The notes under the pieces are model-generated. The model worked only from the letters and a program-made list of their open reading frames with translations, searched no databases and had not been told where the DNA came from. The position numbers and the translations under genes were made by a program. Below, piece after piece: positions 1-45,200 of a stretch of DNA of 64,000 nucleotides. Each line of letters starts with the position of its first letter. Position 1 is the first letter of the stretch. The stretch comes from a bacterium (GTDB taxonomy: Bacteria; Patescibacteriota; Dojkabacteria; JAKAPS01; JAJZLI01), in assembly GCA_021785355.1 (NCBI GenBank), contig JAJYFR010000001.1, forward strand, positions 66,976 through 130,975. Reading direction: 5' to 3'.

Positions 1-31
1 TTACGATTTGTTATGTTGAGGATTTGATGTC

Positions 32-400
32 ATGTATACTTATTTTAATAAAACAGCTTATATTCCTAAGATTTTAGTGAAATCTATGATTTCTGTAAAT
101 CCTAATATTTTAATAACAACTTTAATTGATTTTATGTTTGTTTTAGTGGGTTTTATTTTTTTTATAACTGTATTAATCTCTGGGGTTGAGTGGATGGTAT
201 CTGGTTCTGATAGTAAAAAAAATGAAAATGCTAAAAAAAGATTAATAAACTCAATAATAGGTATATTTATTATTGGAGGATCTTATTTAATCTTAGAAGT
301 TTTAGGAGGTATATTAGGGTTTAATAATTTTTTTAATAAAACTCTGTTTACGAATAAATGCAATAATACTACATATCAGAATCATATATGTCTAGGTTAA
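32..400 (+). CDS. VirB2/TrbC-like T4SS pilin family small membrane protein (paralog 1, no cleavable signal peptide)
   Basis: 122 aa with two hydrophobic helices flanking a charged loop (GVEWMVSGSDSKKNENAKKRLINSIIGIFIIGGSYLILEVLGG), strongly paralogous to the next ORF. C-terminal tail carries two Cys. An in-frame TGA lies upstream at 17-19, so the ORF starts inside the window. Confidence 0.4.
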   Translation: MYTYFNKTAYIPKILVKSMISVNPNILITTLIDFMFVLVGFIFFITVLISGVEWMVSGSDSKKNENAKKRLINSIIGIFIIGGSYLILEVLGGILGFNNFFNKTLFTNKCNNTTYQNHICLG

Positions 401-471
401 TATTGCAAAAATATTAGAAATCTTATATAGTCTATGTTATAATAGTATAAGTTTAGTCTATAAGAACAAAT

Positions 472-927
472 ATGAAAAGAATTAAAAATAAAATATTAAG
501 TTTAATTTTAACTTTATCAGCTCTAATCTCAGCAACATTAGTTCCTGTGTTTGCAGCTACTAGTTATGTTCCTGCATCTATATCAGGTTCTACTCTATCT
601 ACAAATCCAAATGGAATAATATCTACAATTATTAATTTTCTTTTTATAATAGTAGGTTTAATATTCTTTGTTATTCTTGTTATTGCAGGAATACAGTGGG
701 TAACAGCAGGTGGAGAAGAGAAAGGAAAAGAGGAAGCTCAAAAAAGAATTATTAATGCAATCATAGGAGTTGCTATTGTAGCAGGATCTTACTTGATAGT
801 AGAAATAGTATCAGGATTATTAGGAATAGGTGGAATATTTGGAAATAATCTATTTACTCATAATTGTGGTACTACTACAAATTCTTCTGGATCAAGTGTT
901 TGTCTTAATGGTACATTAGGAAATTAA
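472..927 (+). CDS. VirB2/TrbC-like T4SS pilin family small membrane protein (paralog 2, N-terminal signal peptide)
   Basis: 151 aa. Signal-peptide-like N-terminus (MKRIKNKILSLILTLSALISATLVPVFAAT), then the same two-helix core as ORF 32..400 (IAGIQWVTAGGEEKGKEEAQKRIINAIIGVAIVAGSYLIVEIVSG) and a C-terminal Cys pair. Confidence 0.4.
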   Translation: MKRIKNKILSLILTLSALISATLVPVFAATSYVPASISGSTLSTNPNGIISTIINFLFIIVGLIFFVILVIAGIQWVTAGGEEKGKEEAQKRIINAIIGVAIVAGSYLIVEIVSGLLGIGGIFGNNLFTHNCGTTTNSSGSSVCLNGTLGN

Positions 928-976: not shown

Positions 977-1387
977 TTATTTTACTGAAATACTCTTAGG
1001 TTTTGATTGTTCTGATTTTGGAAGAATAAGAGTAAGTACTCCATTTTTATATTCAGCTTGAGATTTATCATTTTCTACTCTTGATGGTAGAGTAATAGAT
1101 CTTGCTATGCTTTGATGTTTAATCTCTTTTCTGTAATATTTTTTTCCTTTATCTTCATTTTCTTCTTTAGCTTCCGCTTTTATAGTTAAAGTATCTCCTT
1201 CTACAGTTAGGGAGAAGTCTTCCTTTTCAAAACCTGGAGCTTTCATTTTCACTACAACATTGTCTTTTTCTTCATAAATATCTAATGATCCTGTTCCTGT
1301 TTGAAAAAAATTATCCAAATCAAAATCATCGTCATCAAAAAATTTAGGAAAGACTATGTTATAAGGATTCCATCTTGTTATTGCCAT
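977..1387 (-). CDS. Hsp20/alpha-crystallin family small heat-shock protein
   Basis: 136 aa. Alpha-crystallin domain features (KAPGFEKEDFSLTVEGDTLTIKAE ... GVLTLILPK). Good SD aggaggtg upstream on minus strand. Confidence 0.8.
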   Translation of the reverse strand: MAITRWNPYNIVFPKFFDDDDFDLDNFFQTGTGSLDIYEEKDNVVVKMKAPGFEKEDFSLTVEGDTLTIKAEAKEENEDKGKKYYRKEIKHQSIARSITLPSRVENDKSQAEYKNGVLTLILPKSEQSKPKSISVK

Positions 1388-2611: not shown

Positions 2612-4668
2612 AGCTTAAAAATATAGATATACAAAATTTTAGACAAATAGAGAATAAAAAATATGAGTTTAAAGATGATATAAACATAATATATGGTAAA
2701 AATGAATCTGGAAAAACCACTTTATTTTATTCAATAATATCTGCTTTTTTTGATAATCCTAAAAAAATAAGAAAAACTTTACTTGAAAGTTATAAGCCTT
2801 GGGGTAAAGATGTTTATCCTGTAATAAAATTTTTATTACAAAAAGATAATGACAAATTCTATATTACTAAAGATTTTAATCAGAAAAAAACTTATTTGAA
2901 TGATAATGAAGTCGAAAATGTAGACAAATTAATACTAGATCTACTAGGACTTAATAAAGATTTATTTGAAAAATTATCATGTGTATACCAAAATCAAATA
3001 TCTTCTATTGAGGATAATCCAAAAGCTTTAGAAAAGTCCATATTAGATATAATATCTTCAAATTCTTCACAAGGAGTAAATGTTTTAGAAGTTGAAGATA
3101 AAATACAGAAAAAAGTTCAAAATATGAAATTAGGTTTAGATAGAGCATCTAAAAATATAGGAATATTAAAAAAATTAGATTTAGAAATAGAAGATTTAGA
3201 ACAAAAAATATTATTTGATAAAAAAGAGTTATCTTCATATTCTGAGAAGATAGATGATTTGAGTAAGAAAAAGAAAGAGAGAAGTGATATAGAAAAAAGA
3301 TTCAATGAAAATAAATCTTTTATAGAAAAATCACAAAAAGCAAAAACTTTAGTATCTCAACTAAAGAATATAGAAGAAGAAATGAAATCTTTAGAATCTA
3401 AATTAAATAGATTGAATAATTTAAATAAAGATTTTGAAAGAGTACAAAGTGAATACCAAAAAGATTTATTAGAAAAAATGGATAAAGCTCAGGACAAGAT
3501 AATAAATCTAAGAAATTCAATAGATTTAAGAAAAAATGATTTGAAGTTATTAGAAGTAGAGAAAGGAAACATAGATAATATGAAGTTAAAACCGATTAGG
3601 ACTAATTCTCCTATAATAATTATTGTAAGTTTATTTCTTCTTCTTCTTACATTTATATCAGCATTCTTTTCTTTTTATATACTTATAAGTTTATTTTTAG
3701 ATATAGTGTTTGTAGCCTTCTATTTACGATTTGTGGATTATAATAGGCTTGAAAAATTTCATAATCCAGCTATAGAAGGAATTAGTTCTCTTCAAAAAGA
3801 TATTTTAGATAAAGAAACGGAACTAAATTTAATATTAAGTGAATTTCATCTAACAAATATTAATGAATTTTTTAAAAAAAGAACGAAAATGCTTTCTTTA
3901 AAAGAAGAGTTTATCAAATTAGATTCAACTATAAGAGGACTTTTAGGTACAGATTCTTTAGAAATATTTGAGAATAAATTAAGTGAATTTTCCATGAAAA
4001 AGAGGGATATAAATACAGAATTAGATCAAGGATTGAGAGATTTTATGGATATAGATAAAATTCTTTTAAATAGAAAGATTTTAGAAAATGAAGACTTAGA
4101 TCTAGATCTTTTTTCTTTAAATGAAGATATTATTGCACTGGAGTCTAGAGTAGGTGATAATTCTATTACAGAAGAAGATATTGAGAATTTAGAATTGTTA
4201 TTAGAAAATAAAAAGGAAGAAAAAAGTTTTTATTCAAAAAGATTGAATGTATTAAATATCATAGTAAACAATTTGTCTGGAGCAAAAGATACTGTTATAA
4301 AAACAATATCTGAAGATTTAGTTAAACTAGGGAGTGAGTGGATAGAAAAAATAACGGAAGGTAAATATTCTAAAATAGATTTATTAAATAATGAAAAATT
4401 TACAATTTTTGACAGAGGAACGAGTAAATATGTAGATTCATCTCAGTTTCTTTCTACAGGTCTTAAAGATCAAATATATTTATTATCTAGGCTTTCTATA
4501 TTAAATGTTGTTTTAGAAGGGAAATCTTCAGTTATGTTTTTTGATGATCCATTTATTAATTTTGATATAGAGAGATTAACTATATTAATAGATCTTTTAA
4601 AAAACTTTTCCTCTAATAATCAAATTTTCATATTTACTTGTCATAAAATATTAAAAGATTTGGCATGA
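2608..4668 (+). CDS. sbcC: Rad50/SbcC-family SMC-like ATPase with a central transmembrane hairpin in place of a zinc hook
   Basis: 686 aa. N-terminal Walker A GKNESGKTT. C-terminal signature LSTGLKDQ, Walker B VMFFDDPF. Long coiled-coil-like K/E/L-rich arms. About 40 hydrophobic residues at aa 334-373 (nt 3607-3726); no CxxC in the middle. Confidence 0.75.
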   Translation: MKLKNIDIQNFRQIENKKYEFKDDINIIYGKNESGKTTLFYSIISAFFDNPKKIRKTLLESYKPWGKDVYPVIKFLLQKDNDKFYITKDFNQKKTYLNDNEVENVDKLILDLLGLNKDLFEKLSCVYQNQISSIEDNPKALEKSILDIISSNSSQGVNVLEVEDKIQKKVQNMKLGLDRASKNIGILKKLDLEIEDLEQKILFDKKELSSYSEKIDDLSKKKKERSDIEKRFNENKSFIEKSQKAKTLVSQLKNIEEEMKSLESKLNRLNNLNKDFERVQSEYQKDLLEKMDKAQDKIINLRNSIDLRKNDLKLLEVEKGNIDNMKLKPIRTNSPIIIIVSLFLLLLTFISAFFSFYILISLFLDIVFVAFYLRFVDYNRLEKFHNPAIEGISSLQKDILDKETELNLILSEFHLTNINEFFKKRTKMLSLKEEFIKLDSTIRGLLGTDSLEIFENKLSEFSMKKRDINTELDQGLRDFMDIDKILLNRKILENEDLDLDLFSLNEDIIALESRVGDNSITEEDIENLELLLENKKEEKSFYSKRLNVLNIIVNNLSGAKDTVIKTISEDLVKLGSEWIEKITEGKYSKIDLLNNEKFTIFDRGTSKYVDSSQFLSTGLKDQIYLLSRLSILNVVLEGKSSVMFFDDPFINFDIERLTILIDLLKNFSSNNQIFIFTCHKILKDLA

Positions 4669-6524
4669 ATATTATTAAAAGAAAATACATTTATATACTT
4701 TTATTCTTTATATTTATAGTGTCTATTAAAACTTTGTTTGCTCAAAGTGTAGGTAGTGTTAGTCAATATAATTCTCAAATCAATCAAGATAATCAACAAA
4801 TACAACAATTGCAAACTCAAGAAACTTCTCTACAGAATGCGTTAAATTCTCAAATTGCAAATAAAAATACAATACTTTCTAATTTATATAATATTAATTC
4901 TAATATATATACTTATGAAAGTAATATAAGTAAGATAAAAATCTTAATCTCAAATCTTAATTCATTAAATATCAAAAATAGGGAAAAGATAAAAAAAGAT
5001 ATTATTGTTAGAAATAATATAGAAAGTTCTATTTATATAAATATGCAAACAAACCCTATATATTATATTTTTTCTTCTAAAGATTTTAATAATGCAATTG
5101 TAACTATATATTTAAGTCTTTCTCAATTGTCTTCATATAAAAACAAGATAATATCTATAAATAATGAGATTAATACAATAAAAACTGACCTTTTGAAGCA
5201 GAAGAATTTTGAAAATACTCTTATTACAGAAGAAAATAATCTTAAACCTGTTCAACAAACCCTATATTCCAATCTGAATCAATATAATAATTCTATAAAT
5301 AGTACAAACAACACACTTAATCAAGTTGGAGGTCAAATCTCTGCACTTCAAGCCGATATTCAAAGACTTAATAATCTTGAAACTTTAGCTCAAGCAAAAG
5401 CTTCAACTCAAACATCTTCACCTCCTAGTGAAATAAATCCAAATCCATTATCCAGTTGTAATAATAATCAATGTAATTTTCAATTTACATCATATGGTTT
5501 TGGTAATCCTATGGGAATGTCTCAATATGGAATGTTAGGGATGGCAAATCAGGGCAGTAATGCATCTCAGATAGCTACTAACTATTATCAAGGAAGTAGT
5601 ATTTCTGCTGTAGCAAATTTAGATAATACTATAGTTAATGTTCCAGGATATGGAAAAATGACACTACAGAATTATTTAGCGGGAATAGGAGAAGTTCCAA
5701 ACTCTTGGCCCAATCAAGCTATTGAGGCCCAAATAATAATATCTAGAAGTTATGTTCTATATAGGCTAGATTCTTGTTCTGATTATTCATCTTGTACTCC
5801 TACTGTACCTACAAATATAAATATACCTTCAACAGGAACCGATTTTCAAGTATATGACGGTGGGACCGCTAAAATGAGTGAAGTTATAGCTAGTGAAAAT
5901 CAAGTGCTAACATATAATGGATCTTTAGTTAATGCCTTTTTTTCTTCTTCTAATGGAGGATACGAAGAGAGTATAGGTACTGTAGAGTGTGTTTTATGGA
6001 ATAATTGTAATTACAGTTCTTTTCTTTCGAATTATCTTAAAGCTCAACCAGACCCATATGATACCTCAACTGCTAATGTAGACCCTTCTTATCAATATGC
6101 AAATCCTGCTATGAATACGACACAACTTATTAATATAGTAAATACAGCACAAGCTTTGTGTGCAGGTGTAAATTCTTGTTATTTATTTAATAATAATAAT
6201 GGGTCGAATTCTTTTGATAATGCTTATTCAACGGATAATTCTAATACTAATTATAATAATTCTTCAAATGATACATTTACCAATATCAATCAATACCTTA
6301 CATCTAATGGTATATCTCCGATAAATTCTATTGTAAATTTTTCAATATCTACAATGGGACATATGCCATCTGAGATTAATGTAGTAAGTCTTCATCATAA
6401 TATAACAATAAATGCGGGAGTGTTTTGGTTAGCATTTTTATTAGTTTCTCCTAATTATTCTAATTTTAATGATGATTTAGTCGGTTTTAGATATACAGTT
6501 AATATAACAGGTACTACACCATAG
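4665..6524 (+). CDS. Secreted coiled-coil protein with C-terminal SpoIID/LytB-like domain
   Basis: 619 aa. N-terminal signal/anchor (ILLFFIFIVSIKTLFAQS), Q/N-rich coiled-coil region. SpoIID-like motif GFGNPMGMSQYGMLGMANQG ... YYQGSS. Start overlaps sbcC stop (ATGA). Confidence 0.5.
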   Translation: MNIIKRKYIYILLFFIFIVSIKTLFAQSVGSVSQYNSQINQDNQQIQQLQTQETSLQNALNSQIANKNTILSNLYNINSNIYTYESNISKIKILISNLNSLNIKNREKIKKDIIVRNNIESSIYINMQTNPIYYIFSSKDFNNAIVTIYLSLSQLSSYKNKIISINNEINTIKTDLLKQKNFENTLITEENNLKPVQQTLYSNLNQYNNSINSTNNTLNQVGGQISALQADIQRLNNLETLAQAKASTQTSSPPSEINPNPLSSCNNNQCNFQFTSYGFGNPMGMSQYGMLGMANQGSNASQIATNYYQGSSISAVANLDNTIVNVPGYGKMTLQNYLAGIGEVPNSWPNQAIEAQIIISRSYVLYRLDSCSDYSSCTPTVPTNINIPSTGTDFQVYDGGTAKMSEVIASENQVLTYNGSLVNAFFSSSNGGYEESIGTVECVLWNNCNYSSFLSNYLKAQPDPYDTSTANVDPSYQYANPAMNTTQLINIVNTAQALCAGVNSCYLFNNNNGSNSFDNAYSTDNSNTNYNNSSNDTFTNINQYLTSNGISPINSIVNFSISTMGHMPSEINVVSLHHNITINAGVFWLAFLLVSPNYSNFNDDLVGFRYTVNITGTTP

Positions 6525-6568: not shown

Positions 6569-7657
6569 ATGAAATTAGATGTAAAAATAAAGACATATAT
6601 ACCTAAGAATAATGAAAAAGATTCATTTTCTCATGTATATATGCATGATCCACAAGAAGAAAGTCTTCTTGAAACAAGAGGAAAACTATTTTCAGCTATA
6701 GATGTAAGGACTAAGAATAGAGATGTAGATATAGAATCTTTAGTAAATGAGTTTCTAGATAATATAGAGTTAGAATATTTTAGTAATGATGTCTCTAGTA
6801 TTATAAATATTCTTGATAAATCAGTAAATATAGCTTATTCAAAATTATCACAAAAGATTATAGATATGGAATTGAGTGGGAATATAGATTTTAATGTAGG
6901 TTGTTTTGTAATTTGGGGTGATATTGCTTATATGGCAAGAATAGGGGAAACAAAGATTTATCTTTTTAGAGACGGTAAGTTTATGAATTTATCAGATCAT
7001 TTATTAGCAGTTGGAAAGAGTATTGTCTCTACAGCTAGTGGATATGCTAAAAATAAAGATATTTTTTTTATGTCCACATCTTTGATTAAAAACTATTTAG
7101 ATGAGAAAAAAATAAAAGATATTTGTAATTCATCTCAAGAAGAAATTTCACAAATGGAATTAGGGAATAAGAATATATCATTTATTGTAATGCAAATAGA
7201 AACAACAGAGGAAGATATAAAAGATGAAGAATTAGAAAAAGATGAAGAGGTAGTAGTTGAATTAAATGATTCTTCTGATAATATAGAGAGTGAAGAACAT
7301 ATAGATAATATTCAGAAAAGATCTCTTAATGATTTTGATTTAAAAAATAAAGCGAAAAAAATGACCTCTTATATTATAAATTCAACAAAAAATACTTCTT
7401 CTAATATATACAAAAATATAAATACTAATGTAAAGAAAGTGGATTGGAAATCTTTAATGAAATCTATTTTAACTGTTATATTAACTTTTTTTGAATGGAT
7501 ATTTTATTCACTAGTATACCTAAAAGATAGATCCCAAAAACAATATAAATTAAAAATTAATAGAGATATAGAGATTTTAAAAAAAGAGAAAAAAACAGTT
7601 ATTGGTATAGTAATATTTCTTATATTATTTATACTAATATATAATTTTTTTTTTTAA
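6569..7657 (+). CDS. Hypothetical membrane-anchored protein with PP2C-phosphatase-like core (possibly degenerate), acidic linker and C-terminal TM
   Basis: 362 aa. NVGCFVIWGDIAYMARIGETKIYLFRDGKFMNLSDH resembles the PP2C motif (VANVGDSRAYL.RDG...LT.DH) with D-to-E change. DE-rich linker. C-terminal hydrophobic helix. Confidence 0.3.
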   Translation: MKLDVKIKTYIPKNNEKDSFSHVYMHDPQEESLLETRGKLFSAIDVRTKNRDVDIESLVNEFLDNIELEYFSNDVSSIINILDKSVNIAYSKLSQKIIDMELSGNIDFNVGCFVIWGDIAYMARIGETKIYLFRDGKFMNLSDHLLAVGKSIVSTASGYAKNKDIFFMSTSLIKNYLDEKKIKDICNSSQEEISQMELGNKNISFIVMQIETTEEDIKDEELEKDEEVVVELNDSSDNIESEEHIDNIQKRSLNDFDLKNKAKKMTSYIINSTKNTSSNIYKNINTNVKKVDWKSLMKSILTVILTFFEWIFYSLVYLKDRSQKQYKLKINRDIEILKKEKKTVIGIVIFLILFILIYNFFF

Positions 7658-7799: not shown

Positions 7800-8711
7800 T
7801 TGATTAATAAATTAAAAGATAATTCTTCTAGTAAATCTTACCTTAATGAATTGAACAATATATATTATTCTTTAAATGATGTAATTCCTATAAATAATTA
7901 TACAATCCTGTCAGACATAGGGATTTCTTATCCTGGAGCTGAAATTAGTTCTTTACAAAACTTATCTGGAAATATATATCTAACTGATCCTAAACTGCAA
8001 TATGTATATTCAATATCAGATACTACTCAATCAACTCCAACTCAGTTTGAGAGATTGTCTTCAGGTATATCCATTCCTCAATCAATTACATATTCATTGT
8101 CAAAGAATTCCTTATTTTTATATGACACAGATAGAGGTCTTTTTAGTGTAGCACTAAATGGAACTTTATCTCCAATAATAGGTCCTGTACCAAATTCAAA
8201 TATATCAAGTATTCAATCATATATGGGGAACATCTATATGTTAGATAGCTCTAAAGGTATAATATATAATGTAAACACAACAACTCTTTCATATACTAAT
8301 GGATTAAAATCCAAATATTTAGTAGGTGCAAGGTCGTTTGCTGTAGATGGAAATATTTTTGTTATAGATAAATCTGGTAATATTGTACGTTTTTATGCAA
8401 ATACATATACTCCATTTGCAATTTCTAATTCTCAAGCTATGGAATATTCTTTGAATAAGAGTTCATATATTTATGATAATCAGTACTCTAATTATATATA
8501 TATTGTAGATCCAGCTCATTACAGAATAGTAGTTTTACAAAAACCTGCAGCAGGTTCAGTAAATACAACGGATTATAAATTTGTAAAGCAGTATGTATAT
8601 ACAGGAAGTAATAAAAGCTTATTTTCAAATATAACAGATTTATCGATATCAGCATCTGGAAAGAGTTTTTATTTATTATCTGGAACTAAAATAATTAAAA
8701 TATTTATATGA
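7800..8711 (+). CDS. Hypothetical protein with repeated beta-propeller-like (NHL/YVTN-type) blades
   Basis: 303 aa. Repeats GNIYLTDPK, GNIYMLDSSKGIIYNV, DGNIFVIDKSGNIVRF, NYIYIVDPAHYRIVVL. The only start available is TTG at 7800: frame open from 7638, no ATG/GTG, no SD. Start uncertain. Confidence 0.3.
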   Translation: MINKLKDNSSSKSYLNELNNIYYSLNDVIPINNYTILSDIGISYPGAEISSLQNLSGNIYLTDPKLQYVYSISDTTQSTPTQFERLSSGISIPQSITYSLSKNSLFLYDTDRGLFSVALNGTLSPIIGPVPNSNISSIQSYMGNIYMLDSSKGIIYNVNTTTLSYTNGLKSKYLVGARSFAVDGNIFVIDKSGNIVRFYANTYTPFAISNSQAMEYSLNKSSYIYDNQYSNYIYIVDPAHYRIVVLQKPAAGSVNTTDYKFVKQYVYTGSNKSLFSNITDLSISASGKSFYLLSGTKIIKIFI

Positions 8712-9515: not shown

Positions 9516-11948
9516 ATGGTTTCTCATTTAGTTATTAACACAAATTATATCCATACTCTATATTCTAATATGATTAGTGTCATTACAATAGTTTTTATTG
9601 TACTGGTTATTTTACTTATAATAGTAGTAATTTTTCTTATAACAGCATTTTTTCTTCTAAGAGATATTAAAATTTCTAATTTTATTAAAAATAGCAAGAA
9701 ATTAGTAACTTTTGAAGTAACACTTCCTATGGATAATGAAGTAGAGATTGCTGCAGCTGAACAAATGTATTTAGCATTATCAGGTATTAAAGGGGGGAAG
9801 AAATTTGAAAGATTAGTAGGAAAATTTGACTATATAACATTTGAAATATTAGCAACTTCAGAATTAATAAATTTCTATGTAACTTGTAGTGAAAAAATGT
9901 CTGATTTTATTGAAAAACAGATACATTCAAGTTATCAAACAGCTGAAGTTGTTAAAATTGAACATCCTGATATTTTTGAGAAAGATGCTTATGTTGAATA
10001 TGCATCCTTAGTTTTTTCAAAAGAATCATATTATCCTATAAAAACTTATGGAGAAGAAGTAAAGGTTGATACAATATCTAACATAACTAGTGTTATAAGT
10101 AAGTTATCAAAAGATGAATATGCTTCTTTTCAATTAGTTATATACCCTTCAACTGGTAAATGGATTAAGAATGGGAATAATCATACTAAACCAAAGAGTG
10201 TGAAAAAAGATGAGGCTCCAAAACCTGAGAGTAATTCTAAGCAATATCAGAATCAAAAGATAGATGACAAGACAAAAAACCCTGGATTTGTTTCTACAAT
10301 AAGACTTTTAGCTGTAAGTGAAAATGAAGAAAAAGCTAAAGCATTACTTAATAATATGGTTTCAAGTTTTTCTCAATTTACTGAGATAGGTGGAAATAAA
10401 TTTAAAAAAGCTAAATTAAGGTTCTTTAATAAAAAAGATTTTCAATTGGGTTATTTGTTTAATTTCCCATCTTTGTATGAAGAATACAAATCTACATCAA
10501 CAATACTTAATACTACAGAATTAGCAACTATTTTTCATTTTCCAAATAAGGATGTACAAACCCCTCATATACATAGATTAAATGCCAAGAGAGCACCTGT
10601 TTCGGCTGATATTCCATATGAAGGTCTATTCTTAGGTAATGGTATTTATAGAGGGCATACTAGACCTGTATATATAGGAGATGATGATAGAAGAAGACAT
10701 ATGTATATGGTAGGTAGAACTGGTACAGGAAAATCAACATTTTTAGAATCTTTAGCTTTACAGGATATACAAAATGGAAAAGGTGTTGCATTTCTTGATC
10801 CTCATGGTCAGTCTGCCGAAAATATTATTGCAAGAATACCTCCTGAGAGAGCAGGTGATGTGATTTATTTTAATGCAGGAGATTATGATAGACCTATGGG
10901 AATAAACATAATGGAGTATTATTCTGAGGAAGATAAGCACATGATTGTAAATTCTTTTTACCATATGCTTGAAAAGCTTTTTGATCCAAATAGAACAGGA
11001 ATTACAGGTCCTAGATTAGAAAGAGCTGTTAGAAATTGTATGTTAACTGCTATGTCAAAACCAGGTAGTACACTCATAGAAGTATTCAGATTAGTTTTAT
11101 TAGATCAAAAATTCATAGATGAAGTATTACCTTATGTAAAAGATGATTTAGTTAGAAAATATTGGACAGAAGAGATAGCAAATACTTCTGATTATCATAA
11201 ATCAGAAACATTAGGTTATTTTGCATCAAAATTTGATAGATTTGTTGTTAATAAGATGATGCGAAATATTTTAGGTCAGAGTAAATCATCCTTTAATTTA
11301 AGAGAAATAATGGATAATCAGAAGATATTAATTGTAAATCTTGATAAAGGTAAGATAGGAGAAGAAAATTCTCAGTTTTTAGGTTTATTATTAGTGCCAA
11401 AAATACTTTCTGCTGCAATGTCTAGATCAAATATTCCAGAAGATCAGAGAAAAGATTTTTACTTATATGTTGATGAATTTCAGAATTTTGCAACAGAAGA
11501 TTTTGCTCAAATTTTATCTGAGTCAAGAAAATATAGACTTAATTTAATTGTAGCAAATCAATATATAAATCAAATGATAGATGAAGTTAAGAATGCTATA
11601 TTTGGAAATGTTGGTTCTTTAGTAAGTTTTAAAGTGGGTGTTTCTGATGCTGAATTTCTAGAGAAAGAATTTGAACCAATTTTTAATCAACAAGATCTAA
11701 TTAATTTAGAGAATAGATATGCTTATGTTAAAATTATATCTAAAGGAGAAGCTCAGCCTCCTTTTTCTATGCAGACCGTAATGAGTTCTGCGAAGCCAGA
11801 TAATGAAATAGCTGAGTCTATAAAGCATTTATCTAGAATAAAATATGGAAGAGATATTAATGAAATAGAGGATGAAATTAAATCTAGAGGTCTTTTAGAT
11901 AATACTCTAAATCCATCTGCTCTTGAAGATATATTGAAGCAGAAGTAA
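9516..11948 (+). CDS. Membrane-anchored FtsK/HerA-superfamily conjugation-type ATPase (VirD4/TraG/TraD coupling-protein-like, possibly VirB4-like)
   Basis: 810 aa. N-terminal hydrophobic segment. Walker A MVGRTGTGKST followed by VAFLDPHGQS (the DPxG box typical of TrwB/VirD4-type proteins). Walker B YLYVDEF and SRKYRLNLIVANQ. About 340 aa between the TM and the NTPase domain. Confidence 0.55.
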   Translation: MVSHLVINTNYIHTLYSNMISVITIVFIVLVILLIIVVIFLITAFFLLRDIKISNFIKNSKKLVTFEVTLPMDNEVEIAAAEQMYLALSGIKGGKKFERLVGKFDYITFEILATSELINFYVTCSEKMSDFIEKQIHSSYQTAEVVKIEHPDIFEKDAYVEYASLVFSKESYYPIKTYGEEVKVDTISNITSVISKLSKDEYASFQLVIYPSTGKWIKNGNNHTKPKSVKKDEAPKPESNSKQYQNQKIDDKTKNPGFVSTIRLLAVSENEEKAKALLNNMVSSFSQFTEIGGNKFKKAKLRFFNKKDFQLGYLFNFPSLYEEYKSTSTILNTTELATIFHFPNKDVQTPHIHRLNAKRAPVSADIPYEGLFLGNGIYRGHTRPVYIGDDDRRRHMYMVGRTGTGKSTFLESLALQDIQNGKGVAFLDPHGQSAENIIARIPPERAGDVIYFNAGDYDRPMGINIMEYYSEEDKHMIVNSFYHMLEKLFDPNRTGITGPRLERAVRNCMLTAMSKPGSTLIEVFRLVLLDQKFIDEVLPYVKDDLVRKYWTEEIANTSDYHKSETLGYFASKFDRFVVNKMMRNILGQSKSSFNLREIMDNQKILIVNLDKGKIGEENSQFLGLLLVPKILSAAMSRSNIPEDQRKDFYLYVDEFQNFATEDFAQILSESRKYRLNLIVANQYINQMIDEVKNAIFGNVGSLVSFKVGVSDAEFLEKEFEPIFNQQDLINLENRYAYVKIISKGEAQPPFSMQTVMSSAKPDNEIAESIKHLSRIKYGRDINEIEDEIKSRGLLDNTLNPSALEDILKQK

Positions 11949-12004: not shown

Positions 12005-12078
12005 GGGCACATAGCTCAGTTGGTTAGAGCACCGTTCTTATAAAGCGGGGGTCGATGGTTCAAATCCATCTGTGCCCA
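12005..12078 (+). tRNA. tRNA-Ile (anticodon UAU, reads AUA)
   Basis: Cloverleaf: acceptor gggcaca/tgtgccc, D-arm agctcagttggttagagc (Ile-like), anticodon stem ccgtt/agcgg, loop cTTATAa, T-arm gatggttcaaatccatc. No encoded CCA. Confidence 0.8.
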
Positions 12079-12084
12079 ATTTAA

Positions 12085-12945
12085 TTATAAAATAGGTAAA
12101 TTGGGTAATCTTTCTGTATCAATTTTTATTTTTCCTAGATATTTTTCTGTAGTAGCAATTCTTTTGTGTCCTATTATTTTTGATAATGCATATATATTAG
12201 TTCCTCTAGATAAATGATGTGCTATAAAAGTATTTCTTAAATCATTAACTTTTGCATTTTCAATTCCAGCTTTTCTAAACATTCCATCTATAGAAGTTCT
12301 TATATTTCTAACTAATAAAGGATTTCCATTTTTAGTTATAAATAAATTATCTGTTTTAGCATTTTTAGGTCTTATACTTATATACTGTCTTATTACATCT
12401 AATGATTGGTCATTTAGAGGTACTTCTCTAGAAGGTGTAGTTCCATATTCTATTATATGAATATATTTTTCCTCACCTGTCATGTGAAGATCTGTTGTTT
12501 TTATTCTACATAATTCTCCTATTCTAATACCTGTTTGTAAAAGTATTTCGATTATAAGAGCTGTTCTTGTATCATTTTTTGCTGTATCTCTTAAAGCTTT
12601 AAATTCTACTTCTGTAAGAATTCTAGGTATAACGTTTTTTATCTTAGGATGAGCAATTAAGATTGCGGGGTTCTTATCTACAATATTTAGAGTTTGAAGA
12701 TATTTAAAAAAAGTTCTAGTACTATTAATCTTTCTAGAAACAGTTTTTGCTGATAAATTTTGTTTTTTTAATTCATCAAAATATTTAACGAGTATATCCT
12801 CTGTTACATCTGCAGGATTTTTTATATTTGAGAGTTTAATATATTCATCTAATTGCTCTAAATCCTTTTTATAAGCTATAATAGTATGTATGGATTTTTT
12901 GTCTTTATCCAATTCTTCTGTAAAATTTTTTATGTACTGATCCAT
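12085..12945 (-). CDS. Tyrosine site-specific recombinase (XerC/XerD-family or integrase)
   Basis: 286 aa. N-terminal SAM-like core-binding domain. Catalytic boxes (GIRIGEL with R; HxxR region; IGHKRIATTEKYLG with C-terminal Tyr). Stop only 7 nt from the tRNA-Ile(UAU) 3' end. Confidence 0.8.
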   Translation of the reverse strand: MDQYIKNFTEELDKDKKSIHTIIAYKKDLEQLDEYIKLSNIKNPADVTEDILVKYFDELKKQNLSAKTVSRKINSTRTFFKYLQTLNIVDKNPAILIAHPKIKNVIPRILTEVEFKALRDTAKNDTRTALIIEILLQTGIRIGELCRIKTTDLHMTGEEKYIHIIEYGTTPSREVPLNDQSLDVIRQYISIRPKNAKTDNLFITKNGNPLLVRNIRTSIDGMFRKAGIENAKVNDLRNTFIAHHLSRGTNIYALSKIIGHKRIATTEKYLGKIKIDTERLPNLPIL

Positions 12946-15638: not shown

Positions 15639-18282
15639 TAAAAAATTTTTTATTATAGATTCTCATGCACTGATATATCGTGCTTATCATGCTGTACCTC
15701 AACTTACGTCTAAAAATAGAAATGTTAATGCTGTATATGGGTTCTTTTCAATATTACTTAGATTAATAGATAAATATGAACCAGCTTATATAGTATGTGC
15801 TTTTGATTCTCCAACAAGTACTTTTATTAAAAAAAAGAAATTTACATGGTATAAAGCTAATAGAGAAAAAGTCCCTGATGAATTAATTGAACAATTTGAG
15901 TATGTAAAAGAAATATTAAGAGCTTTTAATATTAGTATAATAGAATCTTTAGATTATGAGGCAGATGATGTTGTTTCTTCTATAGCTAAAAAATTTAAAA
16001 AAGATTTTGATATCTTTGTTATTACAGGTGATAAAGATTTACTACAACTTGTAGATGATAAGGTATCTTTAATAATGCCAGGGAAATCTTTTTCTGATCC
16101 TAAAGAAATAAATAATTCAAATGTAGAAGAAATTCTAGGTTTTAAGAATAAATATCTTTTAACTTTTAAAAGTTTAAAAGGTGATCCTTCTGATAATATA
16201 CCTGGAGTACCTGGTATAGGAGATAAAACAGCTCAAGATTTAATTCTTCTTTATGGAGATCTTTTTGGTATATATGAAAATATAGATAATGTTAAAGAAT
16301 CATTAAAGCAAAAACTTATAAAAGGAAAGCAGTCAGCATATGATTCTTTTGAAGCTGCAAAATTATTTTATGATATTGATGTTAATCTTGATGTTAGTAA
16401 AATAAAAATAGCATTTGATTATGATAAGATTGTTGAAAAATTGAATGAATATGATTTTAATAGTCTAAAAAATAAATATTTTTCTAAATATAAGATAGAG
16501 GAGAATTCGGGAGTAGAATATAAAGCTCCTAAAGAAATTAATGATGATAATATAAAAACAATATCTAAGGATTTAGAGGAATTAAAAATAGTATATTTTT
16601 ATATACTCAATAATCATACTAATAACTCTATATACAGCATCTTTTTTCTTGTTAAAGATACTATTTATTATATAGATGATTTTAAGAAAGATTCTAATAT
16701 AAAGATTTTAAAAGATATTTTTTCTGATATTAATATAGAAAAAGTTTCTTTTCAGAGTAAAGATGATATGCACTCTCTAAACAACATAGGTATACCTTTT
16801 GAGGGTAAGTATTTTGATATAAATCTAGGTTATTTTATTCTAAAAGGTAAAAATACAACAATTAAATCTATTATTTATGAAATTTTTTCAGTAGAAATTG
16901 AAGATATATCTCTATTAACAATGAATGGTAAGTTTAGTTTAGATGATATAGATAAAGAAAAGTTATTAAAAAACTCTTTTTATTATATATATTATCTTCC
17001 TCTTTTGTATGAAAATATTGTACATAATCTTGAAAAAGATGATTTAAATAATTCTGTATTTAGGAATATTGATTTACCTTTAATTAAAGTACTTTTTGAC
17101 ATAGAAAAGACAGGGATAGAAATAGATGTTGAATATTTAAAAAATCTTTATAAAGAAATTAATGAAAAGATACTTTTGTTAGAGAACAAGATTTTCAAAT
17201 CTGTAGGTAAAGATTTTAATATATCTTCATCTTTACAATTAAGTAATGTGTTATATGAAGACTTAAAATTACCTTACTTTAAAAAATTAAAAAGTGGTAT
17301 ATTTCCTACAGATGATATAACACTGGAAGGTTTGTCTAAAAGAAATCCAGTAGTTGATGATATTCGTAAATACAAAGAATTAAAAAAACTTAATAGTACA
17401 TATACATTAAGTTTAGTTAAATTTGTAGATGATAAATTAAGAATACATACTACATATAACATAACAGGTGTAAGTACAGGTAGATTATCATCAAAGAATC
17501 CTAATTTACAAAATCTTCCAAATAAAACAGAATTAGGTAGAGATATAAGAAAGGCTTTTATTCCTAGTAAAAATCATATATTTATATCTTTTGATTATTC
17601 TCAGATAGAACTGAGGTTGATGGCTTTCTTTTCTCAAGATGAAAATATGAAAAAAGCATTTAATGAAGGTTTAGATATACATACATATACAGCTTCTCAG
17701 ATTTTTAATAAATTAGAAAAGGATATTACTAAAGATGAAAGAAACAAAGCTAAGACAATTAATTTTGGAGTAATATATGGCATATCTTCATATGGTTTAT
17801 CTCAACAGTTAGGTATTACAAGGAAAGAAGCTAATGATTTTATAGAGAATTATTTTAAAAGATTTTCTTCAATAAAAAATTATTACAAATATATAGAAAC
17901 TTTTGTTGAAAAAAATGCATTTGTAGAAACTTTGTTTGGAAGAAAAAGACATTTTGATACTACTTCTGGAAGTTATATAGTTAAGAGTCACATATTTAGG
18001 GAAGCTATCAATATGCCAATTCAAGGTACTTGTGCTGATATAATAAAAATATCTATGAATAAAATTTTCAATAATAATGAATATTTGAAATATAAAGCCA
18101 AAATATTAATGCAGATCCATGATGAATTAGTGTTTGAAGTGCCAAAGAATGTTGATAAAGAGGCATTTATAAAATTAATTAGTTCTTTAATGACAGATTT
18201 TAAGGAAATCGATATTCCTTTGAGGGTAGATTCTAAATATGGAGATAATTTAAGAGATTTAGTTGTATATGAAAATAAATAA
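15628..18282 (+). CDS. polA: DNA polymerase I
   Basis: 884 aa. N-terminal 5'-3' exonuclease domain. Polymerase motifs DYSQIELR (A), RNKAKTINFGVIYG (B), QIHDELVFE (C). Confidence 0.9.
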   Translation: MSDNKKFFIIDSHALIYRAYHAVPQLTSKNRNVNAVYGFFSILLRLIDKYEPAYIVCAFDSPTSTFIKKKKFTWYKANREKVPDELIEQFEYVKEILRAFNISIIESLDYEADDVVSSIAKKFKKDFDIFVITGDKDLLQLVDDKVSLIMPGKSFSDPKEINNSNVEEILGFKNKYLLTFKSLKGDPSDNIPGVPGIGDKTAQDLILLYGDLFGIYENIDNVKESLKQKLIKGKQSAYDSFEAAKLFYDIDVNLDVSKIKIAFDYDKIVEKLNEYDFNSLKNKYFSKYKIEENSGVEYKAPKEINDDNIKTISKDLEELKIVYFYILNNHTNNSIYSIFFLVKDTIYYIDDFKKDSNIKILKDIFSDINIEKVSFQSKDDMHSLNNIGIPFEGKYFDINLGYFILKGKNTTIKSIIYEIFSVEIEDISLLTMNGKFSLDDIDKEKLLKNSFYYIYYLPLLYENIVHNLEKDDLNNSVFRNIDLPLIKVLFDIEKTGIEIDVEYLKNLYKEINEKILLLENKIFKSVGKDFNISSSLQLSNVLYEDLKLPYFKKLKSGIFPTDDITLEGLSKRNPVVDDIRKYKELKKLNSTYTLSLVKFVDDKLRIHTTYNITGVSTGRLSSKNPNLQNLPNKTELGRDIRKAFIPSKNHIFISFDYSQIELRLMAFFSQDENMKKAFNEGLDIHTYTASQIFNKLEKDITKDERNKAKTINFGVIYGISSYGLSQQLGITRKEANDFIENYFKRFSSIKNYYKYIETFVEKNAFVETLFGRKRHFDTTSGSYIVKSHIFREAINMPIQGTCADIIKISMNKIFNNNEYLKYKAKILMQIHDELVFEVPKNVDKEAFIKLISSLMTDFKEIDIPLRVDSKYGDNLRDLVVYENK

Positions 18283-20014
18283 ATACAGTTTTGATTCACT
18301 TTGTGAACATTTAATTTTATTAGAAAAAATTTCATCTAGAAATCAAATTACAGAGGTTATATCAAACCTATTAAAAGAGATACCTCAAGAGTATGTGGAG
18401 GAATTTATGTATTTGATAAATGGTAGGGTAGCTCCATTTTATGTGAAATCTGATTTTAATATAGGAGATAAAATGATAACAGATGTTCTTAGTGAAGTTC
18501 TTTTACTAGATAATGCTCAGGTAGTATCATATCTAAATGAATATGGAGATTTAGGTACTGTTTTTTATAATAACAAAAAAGGAGATATTCAAAACTATGA
18601 ATTCATAGATATATTTAATTTTTTAAAAGAGATTTCCTTAATTGAGGGGAAAGATTCAAATAAAATAAAGCGAGATCGACTTATTGAAATGTTAAAAACA
18701 TTATCTCCTAATTCTGGAAAATACCTAATTAGAATAGTCTTAGGGAAACTAAGGTTAGGGTTTAGTAATAAAACTTTATTAGATGCAATATCATACTCAA
18801 TAAAAGGTGATAAATCTTTAAGGAAACCTTTAGAATCTGCATATTCTAGATGTTCAGATATTGGAATAGTAGCAAAATATGCTTTTTTAGATATAAATTC
18901 TTTAAATGATTTTTCAATAAAGATAGGTATCCCTATATTTCCAAAATTAGTAGAACGTTCATCATCTATAAATGATGGTATTAAAAGATTTAAAGAAGTT
19001 TATGCCCAACCTAAATTTGATGGATTAAGGTGTCAGATCCATATATTAGATTCAGGAGAAATAAAACTATTCTCAAGAAATCTTAATGATATAACTGATT
19101 TATTTCCTCAATTTATAGAAAGCTTTCAAAAACTAAATGTTAAAAATGCTATTTTTGATTCAGAAATAATAGGAATAAATCTTATTACAAATAAATTTTT
19201 ATTGTTTCAAGATACGGTTAAAATGAAGAGAAAGAACAATCTAATAGTAGATGATAACAATGAGATGAAAGCTTTTATATTTGATGTAATATATCTTAAT
19301 TCCAAATCTTTTTTAAATGAACCTTTCAAAAATAGAATTATGGTTTTATCAGGTCTTTTTTCTGATAATAATTATAAAAATATAGAATTAACAGAAACGA
19401 AAATTTTTTCTAAAGAAGAAGATGTCTACGATTATTTTGAAGAAAATATTAATAAAGGTTTGGAAGGTGTAGTCCTTAAGAATCCCAATAGTTTATATAC
19501 TCCAGGCACACGTAATTTTGATTGGCTAAAACTGAAAAGAGATTCTTTGAAAGATGTTGTTGATACAATTGATGCTGTAATAATGGGGTATTACAAAGGT
19601 AGTGGTAGTAGAGCAAAGTTAGGGATAGGTGGGGTTTTAGTAGGTATATATAATTCTAATAAAAATAAATTTGAAACTATATGTAAATTAGGAAGTGGTT
19701 TTTCAGAAGAAGAACTGGTAGATTTAAAAGCATCTTTAGATTTAAATATCATTAATAATCCAGATAAATTCTATGTTTTCAATAAAGATATCACTCCAGA
19801 TGTATGGGTGGATCCTAAGATAGTAGTAGTTATAAGATCTGATGAAATAACAAAAAGTCCTATACATACATCAGGTATGGATCAGGATAAAGATAAGAAA
19901 GGTTTTGCTTTAAGATTTCCTAGATTTATAAGTTTTAGAGTCGATAAAGGGGCTTATGATTCAACAAGTGTCTCTGAGGTGGAATCTATGTATAAAATTG
20001 AAAAAAATATATGA
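18263..20014 (+). CDS. ATP-dependent DNA ligase
   Basis: 583 aa. Motif I KFDGLR, motif IV EGVVLK, motif V DAVIMGY, motif VI FPRFISFRVDK. Start overlaps the polA end (alternative ATG at 18269). Confidence 0.8.
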   Translation: MYMKINKYSFDSLCEHLILLEKISSRNQITEVISNLLKEIPQEYVEEFMYLINGRVAPFYVKSDFNIGDKMITDVLSEVLLLDNAQVVSYLNEYGDLGTVFYNNKKGDIQNYEFIDIFNFLKEISLIEGKDSNKIKRDRLIEMLKTLSPNSGKYLIRIVLGKLRLGFSNKTLLDAISYSIKGDKSLRKPLESAYSRCSDIGIVAKYAFLDINSLNDFSIKIGIPIFPKLVERSSSINDGIKRFKEVYAQPKFDGLRCQIHILDSGEIKLFSRNLNDITDLFPQFIESFQKLNVKNAIFDSEIIGINLITNKFLLFQDTVKMKRKNNLIVDDNNEMKAFIFDVIYLNSKSFLNEPFKNRIMVLSGLFSDNNYKNIELTETKIFSKEEDVYDYFEENINKGLEGVVLKNPNSLYTPGTRNFDWLKLKRDSLKDVVDTIDAVIMGYYKGSGSRAKLGIGGVLVGIYNSNKNKFETICKLGSGFSEEELVDLKASLDLNIINNPDKFYVFNKDITPDVWVDPKIVVVIRSDEITKSPIHTSGMDQDKDKKGFALRFPRFISFRVDKGAYDSTSVSEVESMYKIEKNI

Positions 20015-20027
20015 TATAATATTTCCC

Positions 20028-21128
20028 ATGATTCCATTAGGTAAAGATAAGAAAGTTTTAGTAGCAATGTCTGGGGGAGTAGATAGTTCCGTAGCTGCAT
20101 ATATTTTAAAAGAACAAGGTTTTGATTTAATTGGGGTTCATATGAAATTTTGGACAGAAGAACAGGGAGATGAATATGGACATCTTTCAGCAAAAGATAA
20201 TAAATGTTGTTCTATAGAAGGGGTTGAAGATGCTAGAAATCTTTGTGATCAACTAAATATTCCTTTTTATGTATTAAATTTTAGAGATGATTTTAAGGAA
20301 GATATTGTTAATTACTTTATATCTTCTTTTAAAAATGGTTTAACTCCAAATCCTTGTGTTATGTGTAATAAAAAAATAAAATTTGGACTTTTATATGAAA
20401 AAATGAAAGATTTTAATGCTCAATATGTTGCTACAGGTCATTATGCTAGAATAATCAAAGAAGATGGTGAATTTAAGCTTTCTAGAGCCCTAGATTTATC
20501 TAAAGATCAATCATATTTCTTACACAGTATTAATAAAAACAATCTTGCAAGTACTTTATTTCCTATAGGAGAGATTAAGAGTAAAGATGAAGTAAGAGAT
20601 ATTGCGCATAAAGCAGGATTGAGAGTATCAGCTAAAAAAGATTCTCAAGAAATATGTTTTATTCCTGGAAATGATTATAAAGGTTTTATAGAAAGAAATG
20701 TAAATATAGATCATACTCCTGGGGATATTGTAGATTTATCTGGTAATATAATAGGAAAGCATAATGGTCTGTCATATTACACTATTGGTCAGAGGAAGGG
20801 TATAGAAACTGTTTTAATAAAGCCATTATATGTAATTAAAAAAGATTTTAGAAATAACAGATTAATAGTAGGTGATATAGAAGATTGTAAGACATATAAT
20901 TTAACCTTGTCGAATATCAATATGTTGAGTGATGATGATAAAATGAATAAAGGGACTAGAATTCAGGTAAGATATAGGGGTAAAATATTAGATATAAAAG
21001 ACTTGCATAAAGAAGGTGATGATCTAAAAATTTTACTAAAAGATGGTGAAATAGGTGTAGCTCCTGGTCAATATGGAGTTTTGTATAATGAAAATATAGT
21101 TATAGGAGGAGGTGTTATTAGTATATGA
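20028..21128 (+). CDS. mnmA: tRNA 2-thiouridylase MnmA
   Basis: PP-loop VLVAMSGGVDSSVAAY. The conserved family N-terminus begins at the second in-frame ATG (20028); the track ORF begins at 19956 overlapping the ligase. Confidence 0.85.
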   Translation: MIPLGKDKKVLVAMSGGVDSSVAAYILKEQGFDLIGVHMKFWTEEQGDEYGHLSAKDNKCCSIEGVEDARNLCDQLNIPFYVLNFRDDFKEDIVNYFISSFKNGLTPNPCVMCNKKIKFGLLYEKMKDFNAQYVATGHYARIIKEDGEFKLSRALDLSKDQSYFLHSINKNNLASTLFPIGEIKSKDEVRDIAHKAGLRVSAKKDSQEICFIPGNDYKGFIERNVNIDHTPGDIVDLSGNIIGKHNGLSYYTIGQRKGIETVLIKPLYVIKKDFRNNRLIVGDIEDCKTYNLTLSNINMLSDDDKMNKGTRIQVRYRGKILDIKDLHKEGDDLKILLKDGEIGVAPGQYGVLYNENIVIGGGVISI

Positions 21129-21571
21129 AGAGTATTTTGAATATTAATCTAAAAGAATTAATTAATTTATCTTATCTAACGGCAAATCCTTTGCCTAAGT
21201 TTATATATATTAATTATTTTATAATTTTATCTATAGATTTATTCTTAGTATGGGTTATTTTTTTATACTTATATATTTTAAAGAAAACCTATAAAACTCC
21301 TATATATAATGTGTTTAGAAAGATTTCTTGGATTTCATTTTATCTTTGTATTTTATTATTAGTATTATTATACTCTAGAGCTTTTGGAATAGCATTTCTT
21401 TCAATGAGGTTATTTTTAGAAATCTATTTATTAATTTTAATAGTATTTATAGTATATTTTGCTATATACTTTCTTTTCTTTCTAAAAAAGGATAATATAG
21501 AGTATTATAAAAAAATAACAAGAGAAAAGTATCTTCCTAAGAAGAAAAGAAATAAGTCAAAAAAGTCTTAA
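21125..21571 (+). CDS. Hypothetical polytopic small membrane protein
   Basis: 148 aa, 3-4 hydrophobic helices, basic C-terminus. Overlaps the mnmA stop (ATGA). Confidence 0.3.
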   Translation: MKSILNINLKELINLSYLTANPLPKFIYINYFIILSIDLFLVWVIFLYLYILKKTYKTPIYNVFRKISWISFYLCILLLVLLYSRAFGIAFLSMRLFLEIYLLILIVFIVYFAIYFLFFLKKDNIEYYKKITREKYLPKKKRNKSKKS

Positions 21572-21649: not shown

Positions 21650-21713
21650 AAAGTAGTAGGTCTCTAAAATTCTGGATTTTTAATGTTGATCCTACAAATA
21701 ACATTTTTTTTGA

Positions 21714-23210
<1,497 letters not shown>

Positions 23211-23322
23211 TTAAGGAGATATTTATAAAAACCTAAATAGAAAATTAGAGTTCCTGCTACTTTTAAATTGTAAAAAACATTACAAAGAATGATCTTTAAA
23301 ATATTTTATTGTATGGAGTAAG

Positions 23323-23546: not shown

Positions 23547-26658
<3,112 letters not shown>

Positions 26659-31870: not shown

Positions 31871-31903
31871 AAAGAAAGGGGATTTTTAAGAATCCCTTTC
31901 TTT
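31871..31903. terminator. Candidate bidirectional terminator hairpin between rplL (+) and the convergent membrane-protein gene (-)
   Basis: aaagaaaggg (31871-31880) / ccctttcttt (31894-31903), 13-nt loop. Weak flanking U-runs. Confidence 0.35.
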
Positions 31904-44704: not shown

Positions 44705-45200
44705 AATAATTGCAACAATCTATATAGTATATACAATAATATTACTACTTTTTAGCAATAACAATTTCTTATTGATAAGAATTGGATTTTTTACTTTTAA
44801 TATAGTTTTTATATTCTCTTGTTTGATCTTTTTTTTGAGTCAGAATAAAAATTTGTTATTTATATATTTGTTTATATATGGGATTATTTTTGATACGTAC
44901 ACTCTAAATAGAATAGGTTTAACCAGTTTAATATTTTTTATTCCATTATTTCTTGTACTATTAATGTCTATATTTAGGCTTAAATTCAATTATTTTATAA
45001 TGATGTATCTTTTTGTAGTGAGTTTACTGTTTAATTTATTTGTATACCTTTATTTCTACGGATTTGGGTCTTTTTATGCCATATCTCATTATTTACTGTA
45101 TATTCTTATATATTCAATTATAGATACCTTACTGGTATACATATTCTTCAAAAAACTTAATAAGTCTTCTGGTGTTAATGAATATAAAGTTAATATTTAA
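44697..45200 (+). CDS. mreD: Rod shape-determining protein MreD (positional call)
   Basis: 167 aa polytopic membrane protein overlapping the mreC stop, upstream of PBP2. Confidence 0.5.
   Translation: MNKIIATIYIVYTIILLLFSNNNFLLIRIGFFTFNIVFIFSCLIFFLSQNKNLLFIYLFIYGIIFDTYTLNRIGLTSLIFFIPLFLVLLMSIFRLKFNYFIMMYLFVVSLLFNLFVYLYFYGFGSFYAISHYLLYILIYSIIDTLLVYIFFKKLNKSSGVNEYKVNI

Follow-up and report, generated by a model that had tools for sequence, protein, structure and literature searches.

Two likely VirB2-like pilin paralogs at the end of a seven-gene tandem array in a Dojkabacteria genome, one of which has lost its leader

Two small genes stand at the very beginning of the 64,000-nucleotide stretch of Dojkabacteria contig JAJYFR010000001.1 analysed here (the whole stretch is referred to as the window). 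The question they raise is whether they encode pilin subunits of a type IV secretion system (T4SS), as an initial annotation of the sequence had proposed, and how it came about that only the second of them carries a signal peptide. Based on profile searches, structure prediction and comparison with related genomes, we consider it likely that both are VirB2-like secretion-system pilin paralogs and the last two genes (g6 and g7) in a tandem array of seven; this judgement applies to the reading as a whole, including the pilus mechanism proposed below. What is new here is incremental, namely the true extent of the array, a traceable leader loss with accelerated evolution of the leaderless paralog, and a Cys-pair tail that is specific to one subfamily.

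Paralog 1 (g6; positions 32 to 400, forward strand) encodes a leaderless protein of 122 amino acids (aa), in which an N-terminal tail of some 25 aa precedes a pair of hydrophobic helices with a KK..KKR loop; C110 and C120 lie in the C-terminal tail. Paralog 2 (g7; 472 to 927, forward strand) encodes 151 aa. The two proteins are 42% identical across their full shared length (69% positives, BLASTP E 1e-34). The two-helix core motifs described in the initial annotation are found verbatim, as SGVEWMVSG...AKKRLINSIIG...GSYLILE in paralog 1 and AGIQWVTAGG...AQKRIINAIIG...GSYLIVE in paralog 2, and so are the C-terminal tails it quoted (FTNKCN...ICLG and FTHNCG...VCLNG). Profile searches place both proteins above the curated gathering cut-off of the Pfam family PF18895 (T4SS_pilin; 26.6 bits), paralog 1 with 41.2 bits and paralog 2 with 39.2 bits. 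PF18895 was matched by all 21 family members scanned, comprising the two window proteins and 19 homologues from protein databases. Ten of these 21 also matched the TrbC/VirB2 family PF04956 at E<=0.01 (best E 7.3e-7), which is listed as well in the precomputed Pfam annotation of the homologues P0012, P0013 and P0018. The family is very large: its profile retrieves 53,480 representative clusters with a threshold of E<=1e-3, of which 9,135 also reach E<=1e-10.

Tandem copies also occur within single proteins. In the majority of the 150 best representatives of the family, one polypeptide carries 2 to 17 tandem two-helix pilin domains, and we call such proteins poly-pilins (for example P0027, 552 aa with 6 copies, and P0028, 1775 aa with 17 copies; also P0034 and P0042). 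Tandem gene arrays and in-frame fusions thus coexist within the PF18895-type family, and poly-pilins are unmentioned in the publications consulted here. Metagenome-assembled genomes (MAGs) titled "uncultured Gammaproteobacteria" contain open reading frames (ORFs) of 900 and 1500 aa with the pilin-like domain (L009, 7872-10622 and 10634-15196), and a five-gene pilin array is found in the same group of MAGs (L008, 677-2368). Either these bins are mislabelled or the family extends past the Patescibacteria.

The architecture of a VirB2-type pilin, consisting of a leader, two hydrophobic helices and a short charged loop, is complete in paralog 2 and partial in paralog 1, which has the hairpin and no leader. 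A Sec-type signal peptide is predicted for paralog 2 at positions 472 to 555 (forward strand; MKRIKNKILSLILTLSALISATLVPVFA, with A as the next residue). This leader occupies residues 1-28, with a hydropathy segment at 8-26, and consists of the n-region MKRIKNK, a 17-residue hydrophobic core and a site at which cleavage would fall between PVFA and A. The cleavage motif, VPxFA before Q, is conserved in all orthologues of paralog 2, to which the protein is 73-78% identical. The mature protein (556 to 927, forward strand) begins with an uncharged N-terminal tail, continues with the first transmembrane helix, the charged loop (GGEEKGKEEAQKR) and the second transmembrane helix, and ends with a C-terminal tail containing C132 and C144, after which an NGT sequon follows. 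In the AlphaFold2 model, residues 18-50 and 55-88 form the two long helices of a hairpin, linked by a turn of four residues, with a predicted local distance difference test score (pLDDT) of 79-90. The mature N-terminal and C-terminal tails carry no charge, and the loop region has four K/R and four D/E residues. In VirB2 and TraA both termini lie outside and the loop inside; with its charge-free tails and charged loop, paralog 2 would fit the same hairpin topology.

The conserved C-terminal Cys pair noted at the outset was found, as C-x(4-11)-C, in both paralogs and in 19 of 19 close homologues. It lies 8-12 residues past the second helix, is kept in the g6 orthologues and occurs in four of 12 more distant single-domain relatives. 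Since only 0.48% of the codons of 49 window genes specify Cys, this conservation is meaningful and unlikely to be random. From g1 to g7 the seven genes of the array encode 6, 0, 4, 4, 0, 2 and 2 Cys residues, all even numbers and all in segments predicted to be extracytoplasmic. The natural reading of this pattern is that the pair would close the exposed tail loop as a disulfide. To our knowledge, a C-terminal disulfide tail is not a known feature of VirB2 or TraA.

Right after the second tail Cys, most g7-type pilins (P0002-P0016) carry an N-x-S/T sequon, in the forms CLNGT, CLNST, CLNTT, CINGS and TLNSS. In paralog 2 it reads CLNGT (904-915) and may be a glycosylation site or mere compositional bias. 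The sole candidate glycan-handling gene in the window, a Wzy_C-like gene at 31902-33206, scores under the Pfam cut-off.

The window truncates the locus. Contigs encoding identical or 99%-identical proteins have five further pilin-like genes directly upstream of base 1, and seven consecutive pilin-like genes are present in the locus of a second strain (L010, 99% identical) and also in L011 and L012. The array comprises g1 (253 aa, with a large Cys-rich N-terminal domain; PF18895 34.2 bits), g2 (123 aa; 35.3 bits), g3 (242 aa, again with a large Cys-rich N-terminal domain; 16 bits, under the cut-off), g4 (156 aa; 43.1 bits), g5 (104 aa here and 104-113 aa across genomes, naturally leaderless; 30.3 bits) and the two window paralogs, g6 (122 aa) and g7 (151 aa). 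In g1 and g3, extracellular domains of about 170 aa are joined to the hairpin. Pairwise identity between the pilin domains of the array averages 28% and reaches its maximum, 44%, between g6 and g7. Genes for MurJ, GroES, GroEL and a UvrD/PDDEXK helicase lie upstream of the array, and downstream are a convergent HSP20 gene, SbcD and SbcC. The seven-gene synteny is kept across three genomes, with the array of the sister MAGs L005 and L007 likewise situated between the helicase gene and HSP20/SbcD. The array is chromosomal, since the same window encodes an rRNA operon and ten tRNAs.

As the initial annotation had stated, paralog 2 alone of the two has a signal peptide; paralog 1 lacks a leader, and an in-frame TGA at window positions 17-19 shuts the frame upstream of its ATG at 32. 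The further statement that paralog 1 starts directly at the first transmembrane helix has to be corrected, as the protein still has some 25 residues ahead of that helix, which are homologous to the start of mature paralog 2. Orthologues of paralog 1 by position, in L005, L007 and P0011, were recognized only via synteny (an indexed homologue search with paralog 1 gave its own strain variant only); they bear the leader MRFSKFFEIVYIFIALFVLGASPIFA, with the predicted cleavage site before SAAYIP. DNA alignment with L005 and L007 shows a gap of about 38 nucleotides (nt) in the species studied here, which removes the ancestral ATG and the n-region. DNA homologous to the h-region remains in frame with paralog 1 and is broken by a TAA and a TGA, at positions 1622-1624 and 1643-1645 of the same-species metagenome contig L002, the latter corresponding to window 17-19. 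The three genomes share a conserved -35-like TTGACT upstream of g6. In this species, the leader of paralog 1 has thus been destroyed by the loss of about 38 nt together with two in-frame stops, and the leadered orthologues together with these lesions make the protein secondarily leaderless.

What remains of the leader, at positions 1 to 31 (forward strand), is now a 5' untranslated region in which the in-frame TGA (17-19) overlaps a GAGGA Shine-Dalgarno sequence (18-22) located 9 nt before the ATG at 32, where translation of paralog 1 now appears to begin. Recoding of TGA (genetic code 4 or 25), by which paralog 1 would extend further upstream, was considered and rejected. The genetic code is standard, with TAA ending 32, TGA 11 and TAG 6 of the 49 genes, and the TGA is a genuine stop because it ends 11 of 49 genes and is found in frame in none; a TAA also lies further upstream.

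Paralog 1 diverged rapidly after the leader had been lost and gained Lys residues in its formerly exported tails. It is 45-49% identical to the g6 orthologues, which are 69-85% identical among themselves, and it has acquired five Lys, three in the N-terminal and two in the C-terminal tail, in segments expected to cross the membrane or to face outward. The second strain (L010) has the same ORF, also leaderless; relative to it, paralog 1 shows 4 synonymous differences and 2 non-synonymous ones. Neither the Cys pair nor the core residues have been lost. The g5 type is leaderless in three of three genomes, and a leader is therefore not obligatory in the family. Judged from these sequence features, paralog 1 probably remains expressed and subject to some constraint; its membrane insertion and its role are uncertain.

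In the mechanism that we propose by analogy with VirB2 and TraA, the paralog 2 precursor would be exported by the Sec pathway and cut by signal peptidase I after VFA, and would then remain embedded in the cytoplasmic membrane, folded as a hairpin of two helices whose ends both point outward, with the charged loop on the cytoplasmic side. A disulfide between C132 and C144 may close the C-terminal tail into a small loop. A VirB4-type ATPase encoded elsewhere would extract the subunits and polymerize them into a putative surface filament, in which the termini and the disulfide loop would point outward and the charged loop would line the lumen. The divergent paralogs, two of which have large Cys-rich N-terminal domains, could supply alternative subunits or minor ones, such as tip proteins or adhesins, for making contact with the host cell.

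Several results weigh against this reading. The TrbC/VirB2 family PF04956, to which the initial annotation had likened both proteins, was matched by paralog 1 with 16.7 bits (E 0.0088), under its curated cut-off of 27.9 bits, and paralog 2 gave no match to it. No solved pilin was found in a sequence-profile search of all PDB chains. The C-terminal tail of paralog 2 has a pLDDT below 53 in the AlphaFold2 model, and the disulfide is deduced from conservation. A review grants Patescibacteria only the "potential to elaborate conjugative pili" (PMC12857230), and the publications consulted here contain no visualized VirB2-type pilus of a Patescibacterium. Among ORFs of at least 90 aa in the window and in the 10 kb on either side of it, there was no Pfam match to VirB3, nor to VirB4, VirB6 or VirB8, the partners that the initial annotation had in mind; relative to the array, this search extended 10 kb upstream and about 73 kb downstream. 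The unannotated neighbours at 6569-7657, 7800-8711, 21125-21571 and 44697-45200 likewise yielded no T4SS partner at relaxed thresholds. Because none of VirB3, VirB4, VirB6 and VirB8 lies within this distance, linkage to a T4SS is not demonstrated for this genome.

The main rival explanation accepts the VirB2 homology and dispenses with the filament: the proteins would be structural or channel subunits in the membrane, belonging to a monoderm-type T4SS or another envelope complex, and some would anchor the N-terminal domains of g1 and g3. Gram-positive T4SSs are generally without a pilus (PMC10633639), and two weak matches point the same way, one of 18 of the 21 homologues to the pilin-like conjugal transfer protein Mbov_0395 of a Mycoplasma integrative and conjugative element (ICE; NF045849, best E 5.7e-6) and one of paralog 2 to TcpD, a small membrane protein of Gram-positive conjugation systems (E 0.0047). 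However, both fall under the curated cut-offs (40 and 100 bits, respectively), and TrbC/VirB2 pilins are the best-supported relatives of the family. The many polyprotein members, with their 2 to 17 tandem hairpins, are hard to square with a simple helical pilus subunit, and the fusion of domains of about 170 aa to the hairpin in g1 and g3 also favours a membrane component, whereas a subunit at the surface would account for the conserved, exposed tail with its putative disulfide and for the paralogs having diversified so rapidly. On balance, we regard a role without a filament as rather improbable. Far less can be said for descent from an unrelated family with two transmembrane helices, such as holins, bacteriocin immunity proteins or type IV (PilA-like) pilins. 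Small size and two hydrophobic helices are common to many families, and structure searches were dominated by generic hairpin folds, but the PF18895 matches are specific and above the cut-off, and the class III prepilin motif (G before F/M-T-L-x-E) is absent from both sequences, with no type IV pilin family in the Pfam or NCBIfam output. Holin and immunity-protein families, either of which the initial annotation would have taken as evidence against its own proposal, gave no match in Pfam, NCBIfam or PHROGs, and no sequence similar to the pilin genes was found in plasmid and phage collections; holin, immunity-protein and phage-origin identities were rejected on these grounds. Based on the profile results, the unrelated-family explanation is effectively refuted, and the initial placement with conjugative rather than PilA pilins is borne out by the PF18895 matches, the AlphaFold2 hairpin and the missing prepilin motif.

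For paralog 1 by itself, it has to be asked whether the gene is dying, its export lost with the leader and its ORF drifting towards a pseudogene. The deletion and the two stops, the strongly accelerated divergence from the orthologues, the five Lys gained in membrane-crossing segments and the failure of the indexed search to return an orthologue outside this species would all be expected of such a gene. On the other hand, the ORF is intact in two strains and is preceded by a strong GAGGA at the right spacing, the core family residues and both Cys have been kept, the strain differences depart from neutrality at roughly p = 0.04 by a binomial estimate, and the leaderless g5 of three genomes shows that a family member can do without a leader. 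Decay of paralog 1 seems to us somewhat unlikely. The charge bias of the protein is now balanced, with the two tails carrying +5 together and the loop also having five K/R, and from this balance an opposite or dual insertion, or residence at the cytoplasmic face, could follow. One could then speculate that paralog 1 has been repurposed, in such an orientation or location, from a pilin into a factor that regulates or caps pilus assembly, and that the disulfide loop of the g6/g7 type with its sequon is a glycosylated host-recognition epitope, convergent with the C-terminal disulfide loop of type IV pilins; this combination we think very unlikely.

Returning to the reading as VirB2-like pilins, the closest published counterpart is the set of pilin arrays described for the monoderm-type T4SS of Patescibacteria. 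In a search with PF04956 and PF18895, Quinonero-Coronel et al. (2025) found VirB2-like pilins in 1,948 Patescibacteria assemblies, with 441 arrays of 2-11 pilin genes (mean identity 25%, maximum 54%), especially in Microgenomatia and Saccharimonadia, and with a pilin near virB4 in 1135 of the 1948 assemblies (PMC12102498). The pilin array of Southlakia epibionticum ML1 lies inside a T4SS cluster and is essential (PMC10633639; PMC12857230), and TM7x has been described as having a "Sec secreted array" (Wang et al. 2023, PMC10633639). The locus studied here belongs to the same PF18895 family, its seven tandem genes are within the range of 2-11, its divergence (mean 28%, maximum 44%) resembles the published values, and it is chromosomal, with no relaxase or plasmid context and with a candidate coupling-protein homologue that is unlinked to virB4. 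Unlike the ML1 array, it is not beside virB4 or other T4SS genes. The locus thus fits the published description in every tested respect save virB4 linkage. The Cys tail of the terminal pair and the loss of the leader in one member are unmentioned in the accounts of such arrays (PMC12102498, PMC10633639).

Likenesses to more distant systems are partial. The TrbC/VirB2 pilins of diderm T4SSs (Agrobacterium tumefaciens VirB2, RP4 TrbC, F TraA) are likewise small and have a leader, a hydrophobic hairpin and a short charged loop, whereas the window proteins score under the PF04956 cut-off and come from a presumably monoderm organism with no VirB5, VirB7, VirB9 or VirB10 context. Tandem VirB2 paralogs of Bartonella and Anaplasma (cited in PMC12102498) show a similar amplification and variation, which has been read as host-facing surface variation. 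However, these are diderm intracellular pathogens of animals whose paralogs are linked to a complete virB operon; here there is no such linkage, and the proposed host is bacterial. The Mycoplasma ICE protein Mbov_0395 / MMCAP2_0565, which has about 80 residues and spans the membrane with two helices, belongs to a monoderm conjugation system of the MPF_FATA class and was matched by 18 of the 21 family members at E<=0.01 over nearly the full model. In contrast to the window genes it is ICE-borne, single-copy and without a Cys tail, and the scores remain far under the 40-bit cut-off.

The initial annotation had also linked the pilins to a VirD4-like ATPase 8.6 kb downstream. The gene is present (9516 to 11948, forward strand) and encodes a P-loop ATPase of 810 aa with an N-terminal transmembrane segment that resembles VirD4-type coupling proteins. 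However, its matches are marginal (TrwB_AAD_bind 23.2, TraG-D_C 23.9 and DUF87 22.6 bits), and its connection with the array is doubtful. The TrwB_AAD_bind match spans 41 residues only, the alignment with TrwB in the PDB (E 9e-4) covers 44 residues (390-433) of the Walker A region only, and DUF8128 is among the precomputed Pfam hits. VirD4-like homologues are common in Patescibacteria and rarely near virB4 (5,713 in 2,918 genomes, about two per genome, with 148 near virB4; PMC12102498), and the proximity of 8.6 kb is therefore weak evidence of a functional link. In S. epibionticum, the only species tested, the VirD4-like homologue is non-essential (PMC12102498).

In Patescibacteria, T4SSs and pilin arrays have proved essential in the only species examined, and neither a pilus nor a substrate or function has yet been demonstrated for them. 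The present locus adds no new principle, and its value is that of a clean natural example of array evolution, in which conserved synteny, an exposed Cys-pair tail in one subfamily and a recent, traceable leader loss followed by rapid divergence can be seen side by side. It also illustrates that an array can lie far from the T4SS ATPase genes, and pipelines that depend on virB4 linkage would therefore miss such arrays.

Between the two paralogs, a promoter-like site was found by consensus scan at 415 to 443 (forward strand; TAGAAA-17-TATAAT, preceded by a TG); this DNA is AT-rich and shows no significant enrichment of such sites, so it is weak evidence of a promoter. Beyond paralog 2, a GC-rich hairpin flanked by an A-run and a T-run at 941 to 978, which also occurs in strain L010, was picked up by a terminator scan (2 found vs 0.3 expected). 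It is likely a bidirectional terminator common to the array and the convergent HSP20 gene (977-1387, reverse strand), marking the end of the array. In the same-species contig L002, an ORF of 842 aa (3113-5641) fuses the SbcD phosphoesterase to a SpoIID-domain protein and SbcC is deleted; the pilin and HSP20 genes flanking the deletion are 100% identical to those of the window. In the window itself, 3.7 kb downstream of the array (4665-6524, forward strand), a secreted protein of 619 aa combines a long Q/N-rich coiled-coil N-terminus with a SpoIID (lytic transglycosylase) domain. One could imagine it as the partner that opens the cell wall, given that most Patescibacteria with VirB2 homologues are without VirB1.

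The remainder of the window, with a GC content of about 25-26%, also encodes SmpB, FtsH, PolA, the ribosomal proteins L10, L7/L12, L11, L1 and S2, MreB/C, PBP2 and TopA. The low GC content, the standard genetic code and the length of the longest contig that encodes the identical protein (757 kb) are compatible with a member of the Patescibacteria, and the occurrence of this pilin family points the same way. Just downstream of the coupling-protein-like gene lies a tRNA-Ile gene whose UAU anticodon is uncommon among bacteria (12005-12078, forward strand), and it adjoins a gene for a XerC/D-type tyrosine recombinase (12085-12945, reverse strand). Directly after polA, and overlapping it, is an ATP-dependent DNA ligase of the archaeal/eukaryal three-domain type (18263-20014, forward strand; DNA_ligase_A_N/M/C). 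The 23S rRNA gene (23547-26657, forward strand) measures 3111 nt against a model of 2925 positions, with about 190 extra nt that represent an insertion or expansion, and the 16S rRNA gene (21707-23211) is of normal length. Two MreB paralogs (33217-34236, reverse strand, and 42838-43896, forward strand) accompany MreC and PBP2 in this genome of about 0.76 Mb.

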